Of a stretch of 64,000 nt of DNA, positions 24,324-32,464 are shown piece after piece. The notes under the pieces were generated by a model that was not told the origin of the DNA, ran no database searches, and saw only the letters and a program-made list of their open reading frames with translations. Position 1 is the first letter of the stretch. The number at the start of each line of letters is the position of its first letter. The stretch lies in the NCBI RefSeq assembly GCF_050920415.1, contig NZ_CP169309.1. One strand, 5' to 3'. This DNA is from Escherichia coli. Lineage in GTDB: Bacteria; Pseudomonadota; Gammaproteobacteria; Enterobacterales; Enterobacteriaceae. The translations under genes were made by a program, and so were the position numbers.

Positions 24324-25690
24324 TCAATCATCATCCTTGCAGTTGATAAGAATTTCTGCCTCTTTTACAACTATCTTATTACGTCCGGTTTCTTTCGCTT
24401 CATATAGTGCATTATCAGCCATTCGATAGATCTCATTCGGATTTAACGCACTTCCCTGAGTCACCACAGCGCCAATGCTAATCGTCACTTTTTGCGGTAT
24501 GGCGTATTCAGGATTATCGCCTGTCAAACGCTCTACATTTGCCCTTATCCTTTCGGCTAAAACTTTCGCGCTTTCAGTATCGGTCTCCGTCAGCAAGACG
24601 CCAAACTCTTCGCCGCCAACGCGTGCTAAAAGGTCATTTGGTCGTATGCTTTTCCCAATGATGCTCACCACTGTTTTTATCACCTGATCGCCAACCGGAT
24701 GCCCCCACGTATCGTTAACTTTTTTAAAGTGATCGATATCCATAATCATGACACAATAAGACGTTTTTTGGGCTGATGCTGATTGAGCCTTCAGTTCATT
24801 GAAAAAATAATTCCTGTTAAATATATTAGTTAATGGATCGCGATGGGCAATGTTCTTTGTTACTCGTAGCGCACTGAAAATATGGCACATAAATATTACC
24901 ATAACGGTTAATTTACTGACTACTTCAATAGTGCGGCTAATATACCAAGTGGACACACTATACCTGCTCATAAATAACAGAGAGATATTATACAGCACGG
25001 CACAGAAAGCAATCACTGATACTCCATTCCAGATATCACAGCGTAAACCATTAAAGTATAGATTAACCAAAAGCAAGATTAACCACATGAAAATCATTAT
25101 GGTAACATATGAGGTTTTCCAGACTACCTGACCATTTTCATTTGTTAACTCGGCAATATGTAAACTGTAGTCATCATAATGACTACTTAGCATGTGAGCA
25201 ACTGCCGCCCCCCCAAAAATAAAAAACAGGCTTATACACAATGTCATTTTTTTGGAAAAAAACAGCGTTTCTTATTGTTTTCACTAACTTTATTCACCAG
25301 CGCTAGCAATATTAACATGCACAAACTCATCTGACGAAACAAATAATAAATTGCAATATCATTTTGTACAACGCTGCTTATCAAATGCCCCTCAATAAAT
25401 TGCTGAATGATAATGACAGTTTTAACAAAGTAAATCAAACAACTCAGAAACGCTAAACTAAGTATACAGTTTGAAAATTGCACACGATCATAAATGAAAT
25501 ACAATTGCATGAAAATAAATGCAACGGTATCGATAAAAAATAAAGCAATCATAACCATTAGATAGGTTGATCGTGGAACAACCTCCTCAACGGTTGGCTG
25601 ATTAAACCAACTATTTACCAAAACGAATGCAAGCCCAAACAATAAGCTCACCAATACAGTACTACTAATTCCCAAATAGTCTTTTTCCAT
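24324..25690 (-). pseudogene. dgcT: diguanylate cyclase DgcT (YcdT) with reading frame interrupted: membrane N-terminal ORF (25244..25780) and GGDEF C-terminal ORF (24324..25247) in different frames
   Basis: C-terminal ORF has GGEEF active site; N-terminal ORF is multi-pass hydrophobic; the frames switch inside a T7-GG-A7 tract at 25247..25262; could equally be a sequencing error. Confidence 0.6.
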
Positions 25691-25780
25691 AAAGCTACAC
25701 CAATCTGTAGGTTGTAGATCCCTTTCTGTCACTAATAGATATAAGAACTGTACTGTTGTCAATATAAAAATCCACCACAA

Positions 25781-26280
25781 ACAATACCAATGATGATAGT
25801 TGCAGACCGCAATTATTATTACCTTAGTGCTTTATACATTCTTCGCGACAAGACAGGCTTGCAAATACATATAAATGGTTATAAGGAAATCCTTATAAAA
25901 CATTAATTCATAGATATATTAGGAATAACAATTGAATCCGTGAGTACAGTAACGCTGCATTTCATCAGGACTTTCGAAAAATCCGATATCATGCATCGGA
26001 ATTTACTGATTTAATTATTTTAATCCTAATTTATTTTGAAAAAGGCATTGGGATTTATGCCGTATTCCTGAAGTTCCTCATCATTGGAATGGATTTTCGG
26101 GCGAGAAAAGGATTTTATATGGATACTCTACTCATCATTTCTTCTTCTCATCATCAACAATTCACGTCTCTCTTCCGCGTTTAATAACGGATTATGATGT
26201 GCAAAAAAAAATATCTTTCGTTTCAGTTACCTGTAATTAGATACAGAGAGAGATTTTGGCAATACATGGAGTAATACAGG
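25781..26280 (+). promoter_or_regulatory. pgaABCD promoter and long leader region
   Basis: ~500 bp AT-rich region between divergent dgcT and pgaA; GGA motifs including acaggatg overlapping the pgaA SD, consistent with the known CsrA-controlled leader. Confidence 0.5.
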
Positions 26281-30731: not shown

Positions 30732-32049
30732 TCGCATCGTATCGTTTTTTATATTATGTATGGTGTTATGCATACCCCTATGCGTAGCGTACTTTCACTC
30801 TGGTGAACTGATGATGAGGTTCGTTTTCTTCTGGCCGTTTTTTATGTCCATTATGTGGATTGTTGGCGGCGTCTATTTCTGGGTCTATCGTGAACGCCAC
30901 TGGCCGTGGGGAGAAAACGCACCAGCTCCCCAGTTGAAAGATAATCCGTCTATCTCCATTATCATTCCCTGTTTTAATGAGGAGAAAAACGTTGAGGAAA
31001 CCATACACGCCGCTTTAGCACAGCGTTATGAGAACATTGAAGTTATTGCCGTAAATGACGGTTCAACAGACAAAACCCGTGCCATCCTGGATCGCATGGC
31101 TGCACAAATTCCCCACCTGCGGGTCATTCATCTGGCGCAAAACCAGGGGAAAGCCATTGCGCTTAAAACCGGAGCTGCCGCGGCGAAAAGTGAATATCTG
31201 GTGTGCATTGATGGCGATGCGTTATTAGACCGCGATGCGGCGGCATATATTGTGGAACCGATGTTGTACAACCCGCGTGTGGGTGCCGTAACCGGTAATC
31301 CTCGTATTCGAACACGTTCTACCTTGGTGGGTAAAATTCAGGTTGGCGAGTATTCCTCAATTATTGGTTTGATCAAGCGAACCCAGCGCATCTATGGAAA
31401 CGTATTTACCGTTTCTGGTGTTATTGCCGCATTTCGTCGCAGCGCCCTGGCAGAAGTGGGTTACTGGAGTGACGATATGATCACCGAAGATATTGATATT
31501 AGCTGGAAGCTGCAGTTGAATCAGTGGACGATTTTTTACGAGCCACGGGCGCTGTGCTGGATATTAATGCCTGAAACGTTAAAAGGGCTGTGGAAACAGC
31601 GCCTGCGCTGGGCTCAGGGCGGTGCAGAAGTATTCCTCAAAAATATGACAAGGCTATGGCGCAAAGAAAACTTTCGAATGTGGCCACTGTTTTTTGAATA
31701 CTGTCTGACGACAATATGGGCCTTTACCTGCCTGGTCGGTTTCATTATTTACGCAGTCCAACTTGCAGGTGTACCGTTAAATATTGAATTGACACATATC
31801 GCTGCGACACATACTGCCGGAATATTATTGTGTACGTTATGTTTACTGCAATTTATTGTCAGCCTGATGATCGAGAATCGCTATGAGCATAATCTGACTT
31901 CATCGCTTTTCTGGATTATTTGGTTCCCGGTTATTTTCTGGATGCTGAGCCTGGCAACGACGTTGGTATCATTTACACGAGTCATGTTGATGCCTAAAAA
32001 GCAACGCGCCCGTTGGGTAAGTCCCGATCGAGGGATTCTGAGAGGTTAA
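30724..32049 (+). CDS. pgaC: PGA synthase glycosyltransferase PgaC (GT2 family)
   Basis: 441 aa membrane ORF; overlaps the pgaB end by 8 nt; recognised as PgaC. Confidence 0.95.
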
Positions 32050-32050
32050 T

Positions 32051-32464
32051 ATGAACAATTTAATTATTACGACCCGACAATCGCCAGTACGTTTAATGGT
32101 TGATTATGTTGCCACAACCATCTTATGGACATTATTTGCTTTGTTCATATTCTTATTCACCATGGATCTGCTGACGGGTTATTACTGGCAAAGCGAGGCC
32201 AGAAGCCGACTTCAGTTCTATTTTTTGTTGGCAGTGGCGAATGCCGTCGTGTTAATTGTCTGGGCGCTGTACAATAAGCTGCGTTTTCAAAAACAGCAGC
32301 ATCATGCAGCCTACCAATATACGCCGCAAGAATATGCAGAGAGCTTAGCAATACCTGATGAGCTCTATCAGCAACTACAAAAAAGCCACAGGATGAGCGT
32401 ACACTTCACCAGCCAGGGGAAAATAAAAATGGTTGTTTCAGAAAAAGCGCTAGTCCGGGCATAA
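32051..32464 (+). CDS. pgaD: PGA synthase subunit PgaD
   Basis: 137 aa ORF with two TM helices, starting 1 nt after the pgaC stop. Confidence 0.9.

Follow-up and report, generated by a model that had tools for sequence, protein, structure and literature searches.

The divergent arrangement of dgcT (ycdT) and the pgaABCD operon and frameshifts in dgcT are both already known in Escherichia coli. In EAEC 55989, another natural ycdT frameshift cuts YcdT short within its sensor domain, beside pgaABCD (Richter et al. 2014, PMC4287979). Premature stops that precede an intact GGDEF domain and a downstream in-frame start, as found here in dgcT, were also described by Ojha et al. 2024 (PMC11327459) in Shigella flexneri DGC pseudogenes that have stayed active, and in yedQ of EAEC (PMC4287979). 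A sequence-only reading of the present locus had started from the premise that PgaCD depends on c-di-GMP, which agrees with Steiner 2013 as summarised in PMC8461298, and had taken DgcT as a cyclase linked to PGA synthesis. In the literature consulted, the latter link is a proposal drawn from divergent transcription and shared regulation by CsrA (PMC4287979); control over the level of PgaD has been demonstrated for the cyclase YdeH/DgcZ (Boehm 2009, as reported in PMC8461298). In K-12, DgcT is repressed by CsrA, lies below detection and has no measurable share in the c-di-GMP pool (PMC5635695), and YcdT is often missing from E. coli strains (PMC5635171). Deletion of ycdT in CFT073 led to less biofilm in no-salt LB (PMC3484386); the loss of DgcT can hence have a phenotype, at least in some strains or conditions. 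Data on dgcT and pgaABCD from a study of 3-hydroxypropionate import (PMC13124679, 2026) were set aside as evidence on the control of PGA because of its subject.

The window analysed here is a stretch of 64,000 nucleotides of an E. coli chromosome, in which dgcT (- strand) and pgaABCD (+ strand, 26281-32464) are transcribed divergently, dgcT being located between pgaABCD and serX/ghrA (Table 1). Coordinates and strands bear out the layout and gene identities proposed previously, and the pga structural genes, described as intact in the same reading, are indeed so: pgaA to pgaD follow one another in overlapping or adjacent frames, have the same lengths as in K-12, contain no internal stops and encode products with 97.6-99.8% amino acid identity to those of K-12. 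The locus shares with K-12 the gene order and divergent orientation and the MASE4 + GGDEF architecture of DgcT, and its pgaA leader is largely similar. It differs by the frameshift in dgcT, by the divergence of this gene (88.9% nucleotide and 88-89% amino acid identity, vs about 98% nucleotide identity for the pga genes) and by another C-terminal tail. Downstream of dgcT, K-12 has IS3D, ymdE and ycdU before serX, whereas the window has a 181-bp tandem array directly after serX.

Table 1. Features of the dgcT-pgaABCD region (positions in the window).
Feature	Position	Strand	Remark
dgcT (ycdT) pseudogene / split gene, rare divergent allele	24324..25690	-	"frameshifted" according to PGAP in the near-clonal genome
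ORF2, 307 aa; MASE4 profile positions 114-238 (predicted TM5-8) and full GGDEF	24324..25247	-	
A7 run, then ATGA (overlapping stop and start codons)	25244..25253	-	direct reading
ORF1, 148 aa plus TGA; MASE4 profile positions 5-104, predicted TM helices 1-4	25244..25690	-	
T7 homopolymer, site of the 1-nt deletion	25256..25262	-	T8 in intact relatives; TTTATTTT in K-12
dgcT-pgaA divergent intergenic region, 590 nt	25691..26280		as in K-12 and close relatives
Poly-A tract in the pgaA 5' leader	26203..26211	+	A9 here; A8 or A7 in relatives; A5 in K-12
pgaA, intact, 807 aa	26281..28704	+	97.8% aa identity to K-12
pgaB, intact, 672 aa	28713..30731	+	97.6% aa identity to K-12
pgaC, intact, 441 aa	30724..32049	+	L13M the sole difference from K-12
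pgaD, intact, 137 aa	32051..32464	+	3 aa differences from K-12

Alignment of the intergenic region with K-12 showed an almost identical sequence over the pgaA-proximal ~290 nt (leader side), apart from the poly-A tract, a larger divergence in the dgcT-proximal half, and identity again over the 37 nt directly upstream of the dgcT start. A scan of positions 23300-26400 at Rfam gathering thresholds returned only tRNA-Ser, with no RtT or other family passing. In EAEC 55989 the ycdT lesion is a 7-bp insertion, and the pga promoter has also been rebuilt by an insertion of IS1; the window has instead a 1-nt homopolymer slip, an otherwise undisturbed intergenic region and a stop that overlaps an in-frame ATG. 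The reading preferred here, to which a probability of about 0.75 is assigned, is that a real and inherited T8 to T7 deletion has occurred in a rare divergent dgcT allele, with loss of full-length DgcT and a small effect on PGA.

The dgcT gene of the window was considered as the orthologue of DgcT (YcdT) on the basis of its position and its predicted MASE4 (8 TM) + GGDEF architecture, both domains being matched in an intact relative (MASE4, 7.8e-65; GGDEF, 3.2e-50). In NCBIfam no model is specific to DgcT and only the generic one for the GGDEF domain passes its cutoff, and PGAP names products of this type merely "GGDEF domain-containing protein". In the window both domains are present but spread over two ORFs, and no single uninterrupted frame is found: from the ATG at 25690, equivalent to the K-12 start, translation halts after 148 codons, and the remaining 3' part lies in a different frame, as ORF2. 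Since standard decoding stops after 148 residues, no full-length DgcT would be made. Comparison with intact relatives attributes the change of frame to the loss of one T from a T8 run. By profile matching, MASE4 is split at positions 104/114 and the GGDEF domain is left whole, with a GGEEF A-site and an RxxD (RPND) I-site. DgcT has eight hydrophobic segments, four on either side of a K/R-rich loop, and the break lies in this loop, which joins TM4 to TM5 in the sensor and is presumably cytoplasmic.

The frameshift is real and vertically inherited. The near-clonal complete genome MFDS1022581 (NZ_CP169399.1), which differs from the window by 6 SNPs in 64 kb, carries it too, as does strain N96; PGAP tags dgcT as "frameshifted" in both genomes, and it is the sole pseudogene among 66 features in the corresponding 66 kb. 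That an error of sequencing or assembly at the homopolymer explains the lesion is barely credible: long-read assemblies often miscall such runs, and several prophage or IS genes elsewhere in MFDS1022581 are also tagged "frameshifted", but no further homopolymer indel separates this genome from the window outside the tandem-repeat array, and N96 has the same allele despite 4 other differences in the gene. Moreover, NCBI, ENA and Logan (SRA-run) assemblies contain the exact 307-aa product on 55 contigs (72 index blocks), and the identical allele recurs in many independent assemblies from different samples. The frameshift announced by the sequence-only reading is confirmed by these genomes; that reading had missed the rarity and divergence of the allele and the recurrence of the homopolymer slip.

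The DgcT of K-12 is clearly the closest relative of that of the window, yet the window version is an outlier allele. At a threshold of at least 99% identity it occurs in 16 of 5426 complete E. coli genomes, two of which are frameshifted. None of 38 full-length matches sampled across the ranking has the net dgcT length of the window; all are 1 nt longer, as an intact frame predicts. Proteins of 277-345 aa from the 90%-identity cluster were rejected as extra lesions of this allele, as they correspond to K-12-like alleles, mostly partial at contig ends. The sequenced members of the lineage include food, pig and human-associated isolates. The T8 run is confined to the rare divergent allele, in which substitutions would have converted the K-12 sequence (Table 1) into an unbroken T8.

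The T7 genomes compared over 9.3 kb form two haplogroups separated by 40-41 SNPs, and within one haplogroup T7 and T8 genomes are just 1-2 SNPs apart; SNPs specific to the groups occur as close to the T tract as 29 nt and 204 nt. These distances show that the T8 to T7 slip had at least two independent origins. The frameshift is recurrent because the rare allele gained, with T8, a slippage hot spot from which one T was lost separately in at least two sublineages. The repeated loss, together with the occurrence of both tract states among nearly identical genomes, could also point to a contingency locus, in which the tract would toggle DgcT ON and OFF reversibly at a useful frequency, and other homopolymers vary at this locus (A5 to A9 in the pgaA leader, a G7/G10 run in dgcT). 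Such phase variation is nevertheless highly improbable, as each sublineage has a single tract state throughout and no clean OFF-to-ON (T7 to T8) reversion was seen in the genomes compared. Eight nucleotides are also short for a contingency locus in mismatch-repair-proficient E. coli. One assembly, GCA_001910995.1, has T8 but lacks one G at nt 407 of the gene, 21 nt upstream of the tract, which leaves dgcT out of frame, and is SNP-identical to GCA_000190995.1, itself plain T7. It was set aside both as an independent second frameshift and as a T7-to-T8 reversion, the assembly being heavily decayed or error-laden: pgaA has 1-nt and 8-nt deletions, most of pgaC is lost, and ghrA, ycdX and clsC are fragmented.

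Lesions of the pga genes were found in related T7 genomes (pgaA S61* and a 1-nt deletion in pgaB) and none was seen in the T8 genomes sampled; this association between frameshift and pga decay concerns few genomes (3/5 in one haplogroup, two of them sharing one event and one being GCA_001910995.1). Of the two sublineages with the frameshift, one may thus have pga genes that are starting to collect lesions themselves.

As the GGDEF half survives in a complete ORF, with a start codon that overlaps the stop of ORF1, a damaged dgcT need not equal a null one. Ribosomes that terminate at the ATGA could reinitiate there, or start on the internal ATG, which encodes Met149 in the frame of the intact protein; translation of ORF2 would then yield an N-terminally truncated and possibly deregulated DgcT that feeds c-di-GMP to PgaCD. 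ORF1 should still be translated, since the leader beside the dgcT start codon is that of K-12; the break in a K/R-rich, presumably cytoplasmic loop would let a 4-TM ORF2 product keep an N-in/C-in topology; and the whole GGDEF domain of ORF2 retains its A- and I-sites. The cyclase half could on these sequence features keep some activity. There are precedents: c-di-GMP is made from internal starts by Shigella DGC pseudogenes with nonsense codons before GGDEF (PMC11327459), and translational coupling past a stop was argued for yedQ by Richter et al. (PMC4287979). Activity was measured in the Shigella case. The private substitutions of N96 (n=3) are all non-synonymous and all in ORF1, with 0 in ORF2, but these counts are far too few for a selection test. 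An active split cyclase is considered as unlikely, though with some real chance, given that no Shine-Dalgarno-like sequence lies within 20 nt before the ATG of ORF2, that the product would be deprived of half of MASE4, which may affect folding, dimerisation and activity, and that pga decay in one T7 sublineage suits loss of function better.

The same overlap of stop and start stands on A_AAA_AAA, which makes residual expression of the cyclase half conceivable and brings in another route, in which a little full-length DgcT would be regained, either through -1 slippage of the ribosome on this heptamer, just ahead of the TGA, or through slippage during transcription of the T/A runs. The ORF1 frame reads CC A_AAA_AAA TGA, the heptamer is formally a -1 slippery X_XXZ_ZZN sequence in the 0 frame, and a -1 shift would enter the ORF2 frame exactly at the ATG, giving a DgcT with only S146P. 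In N96 the T run has grown to T9, the length at which transcriptional slippage starts to be allowed. Nonetheless, this same strain, which has the same frameshift and would need the heptamer, has it broken (AAAACAA), and the A7 run is found in all intact alleles, K-12 included, which indicates that it was not made for recoding. Like dnaX and the A_AAA_AAR sites of the IS3 family (PMC4066793), dgcT has a perfect in-frame heptamer followed by a 0-frame stop, and in one cluster of IS elements frameshifting at A_AAA_AAA has been proven where a stem-loop stimulates it (PMC4066793). Unlike those sites, dgcT has no stem-loop, pseudoknot or upstream SD: the sequence 3' of the heptamer folds no better than shuffled sequence (z = -0.92; 41/200 shuffles fold at least as well), and no SD-like stimulator was found upstream in the sequence read. 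Recoding is for these reasons very unlikely.

It is likewise distinctly unlikely that the slip was fixed in parallel in the two sublineages for the altered signal input that it would give to a PGA-adjacent cyclase, made in two pieces or N-truncated by reinitiation, or in full length by -1 slippage, rather than for abolition of the enzyme. The pga decay is better matched by a relaxation of selection across the entire dgcT-pga module than by a special regulatory design.

Under the preferred reading, that of a lost full-length DgcT, the consequence for PGA under ordinary conditions is most likely small. The pgaABCD genes are intact in the window strain and their leader appears so too, and PgaCD should still be activatable by the c-di-GMP of other cyclases, above all DgcZ, whose gene is annotated intact in MFDS1022581. 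The step from the damaged dgcT to the altered PGA phenotype previously considered appears weak or overstated, given this intact dgcZ, the undetectable DgcT of K-12 and the complete GGDEF ORF.

The dgcT gene of the window is probably an ordinary strain-level pseudogene, and its lesion probably changes little. This agrees with the known view that few nodes in the c-di-GMP network of E. coli are as dispensable and variable as dgcT. The value of the finding is chiefly one of bookkeeping, in that a natural dgcT-null or dgcT-split allele is documented and no new question is opened. T7 and T8 strains that differ by just 1-2 SNPs over 9.3 kb form natural pairs suited to the study of the link between DgcT and PGA, for which support is still poor.

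The frameshift in dgcT (ycdT), which encodes a diguanylate cyclase (DgcT) with a MASE4 sensor and a GGDEF domain, is real. Translation from the K-12-equivalent ATG gives 148 residues followed by TGA, and alignment to intact close relatives shows that one T is missing from a run of eight (T8), leaving T7; standard decoding yields no full-length DgcT. A second difference, found against one relative (G7 versus G10), is in frame. The same gene is flagged as "frameshifted" by PGAP in genomes MFDS1022581 (NZ_CP169399.1) and N96 (NZ_CM169999.1), and the allele occurs in independent assemblies: 55 contigs (72 index blocks) carry the exact 307-aa product and 19 the 148-aa product, and these NCBI, ENA and Logan assemblies come from different samples. 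The complete genome MFDS1022581 is collinear with the window (gene order dinI/bssS, csg, ghrA, serX, dgcT, pgaABCD, phoH, efe, put, rut, tor) and differs from it by 6 SNPs over 64 kb and by a single 181-bp tandem-repeat unit. In the matching region dgcT is the sole pseudogene among 66 annotated features, and this 64-kb comparison revealed no homopolymer indels apart from the tandem array.

Features of the dgcT-pgaABCD region, in window coordinates
Feature	Position	Strand	Remark
serX	23589-23676		tRNA-Ser
Tandem array	23658-24320		181-bp unit, 3.7 copies, 98% identical
dgcT	24324-25690	-	divergent from pgaA, 590 nt upstream
ORF2 (3' part of dgcT)	24324-25247	-	307 aa; TM5-8 and complete GGDEF domain (Pfam GGDEF, 1.4e-50)
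ORF1 (5' part of dgcT)	25244-25690	-	148 aa
T7 run (deletion site)	25256-25262	-	by alignment
Outlier dgcT segment	24324 to ~25990
Poly-A tract	26203-26211	+	pgaA 5' leader
pgaA	26281-28704	+	open
pgaB	28713-30731	+	open
pgaC	30724-32049	+	open
pgaD	32051-32464	+	open
phoH-efeB spacer	33778-34004		two neighbouring copies, ~127 nt each, ~94% identical

The divergent dgcT-pgaABCD arrangement with intact pga genes, also proposed by the sequence-only reading together with the frameshift, was likewise confirmed: the layout is that of K-12, and each of the four open pga genes has exactly the K-12 length, with 97.6-99.8% amino acid identity. In K-12, however, IS3D, the ymdE pseudogene and ycdU (locus L003, 10246-12830) sit between dgcT and serX; all are absent from the window, where dgcT is directly followed by the tandem array and then serX.

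This array begins inside the 3' end of serX, and its unit starts with the tRNA 3' end. Even very close relatives differ in copy number: the spacer between serX and dgcT measures 104 + n x 181 nt, where n is 0, 2, 3 (window), 4 (MFDS1022581) or 5 (N96). One RefSeq record labels a unit 'RtT sRNA'; scanning the window with Rfam at the gathering threshold found only the tRNA. The poly-A tract, ~70 nt 5' of the pgaA start and within the CsrA-regulated leader, is also hypervariable; K-12 has A5 and the related haplogroups A8 or A7, against A9 in that of the window. The copies in the phoH-efeB spacer are REP-type repeats, and REP95 is listed at this position in K-12 (Cimdins et al., PMC5635171).

The window's dgcT allele is rare. 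Among 5426 complete E. coli genomes, 4158 carry dgcT, but only 30 have a copy at least 95% identical to that of the window (16 at >=99%, 14 at 95-99%), all remaining copies being ~90% identical. K-12 reads TTTATTTT at the position of the T run, so the long run is peculiar to this allele family. Nucleotide identity to K-12 is 88.9% for dgcT versus 97.8-98.8% for pgaA-D, and the C-terminal tail of DgcT also differs from K-12 (KEAEILINCKDDD). The divergence tapers off midway through the intergenic region, a pattern suggestive of either an ancient import by recombination or a class of alleles that has persisted for a long time. Among the 16 genomes at >=99%, MFDS1022581 has exactly T7, 14 have the T8 length, and N96 has the same net deletion with two nearby substitutions (CGC-T9-CC-AAAACAA). 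Over the aligned span, each of 38 full-length dgcT matches sampled evenly through the ranking exceeds the window by 1 nt, the difference that an intact frame should show. N96 carries three private substitutions (equivalents of window 25249, 25263 and 25570), all of them non-synonymous changes in ORF1. Two, a G to T that extends the run to T9 and an A to C that breaks the A7 run, are no more than 15 nt from the frameshift. The substitutions could reflect pseudogene decay, homopolymer sequencing noise or something else.

For comparison of haplogroups, 9.3 kb (phoH to dgcT) were aligned for the window and 14 further assemblies, which split into three groups: G1 (window, MFDS1022581 and three SRA-run assemblies; T7), G2 (four T7 assemblies and two T8, the latter an abundant intact form with 297 index blocks) and G3 (EC42405 type; T8). 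Over 9.3 kb, 40-41 SNPs separate G1 from G2, whereas only 1-2 separate T7 from T8 genomes within G2. The T tract has group-specific SNPs at distances of 29 nt (25227) and 204 nt (25466), so that recombinational import of T7 would need a patch of less than 240 bp; from this alignment, two independent slips appear the simpler reading.

On the Pfam MASE4 profile the break lies between positions 104 and 114. Of the eight hydrophobic segments found in a hydropathy scan, four precede the break and four follow it; the break sits in the loop richest in K/R (6 K/R), predicted to be cytoplasmic by the positive-inside rule. The GGDEF domain of ORF2 has GGEEF, with an RPND I-site five residues upstream. 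The ORF1 frame reads ...TGT TTT TTT CCA AAA AAA TGA, and the ORF2 ATG, in-frame Met149 of the intact protein, overlaps its stop (ATGA); this overlap and the heptamer make two rescue routes formally possible. Termination-reinitiation would give a 307-aa half-sensor cyclase, and active products are known from other diguanylate cyclase pseudogenes (PMC11327459), but no SD-like element was found before the ORF2 ATG. Slippage by -1 on the perfect heptamer A_AAA_AAA, a motif that works when stimulated (PMC4066793), would give full-length DgcT with only S146P; however, no structure 3' of the heptamer beat shuffled controls (z = -0.92), the A7 run is ancestral, being already present in K-12, and it is interrupted in frameshifted N96. 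A programmed frameshift site is thus not supported by the fold, SD and conservation tests, and residual ORF2 expression is a less likely possibility.

The arrangement is textbook K-12, natural ycdT frameshifts and absences are published, and the lesion is already annotated in RefSeq as a frameshifted pseudogene in a near-identical genome. None of what is added here would surprise a specialist: the lesion is defined exactly, it depends on a T8 tract confined to one rare, divergent allele, it recurs across two haplogroups, and the topology of the split is described.

The altered PGA (biofilm polysaccharide) phenotype, suggested as possible from the sequence, is a weak inference: c-di-GMP activates and stabilises PgaCD, but the cyclase with demonstrated control over PgaD level is YdeH/DgcZ (PMC8461298), and the DgcT-PGA link is a suggestion from gene position (PMC4287979). 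K-12 DgcT is CsrA-repressed and below detection, and makes no measurable contribution to the c-di-GMP pool even when PdeH is lacking (PMC5635695); natural isolates are often without YcdT (PMC5635171). The dgcZ gene, located outside the window, is annotated intact in near-clonal MFDS1022581 and is presumably intact in the window strain too. In CFT073 in no-salt LB, ycdT deletion lowered biofilm (PMC3484386), which counts against a wholly silent role. On this published evidence, the effect of the frameshift on PGA is probably small.

The pgaABCD genes are intact in all G1 and all T8 genomes examined. In G2-T7, GCA_000190995.1 has pgaA S61* (TCA to TAA; window 26462 equivalent) and GCA_903932185.1 a 1-nt deletion in pgaB (nt 1131). 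GCA_001910995.1, counted within G2-T7, has pgaA S61*, 1-nt and 8-nt deletions in pgaA and loss of most of pgaC. Over 9.3 kb no SNP separates it from GCA_000190995.1, yet it has T8 and another 1-nt deletion 21 nt upstream; ghrA, ycdX and clsC are fragmented. Either the genome is in heavy decay or the assembly is rich in errors. The pga lesions of this assembly were given little weight because many other genes are fragmented. In this small sample, the G2-T7 lesions argue against the frameshift as part of a conserved regulatory device, and they fit relaxed selection acting across the dgcT-pga module in that sublineage.
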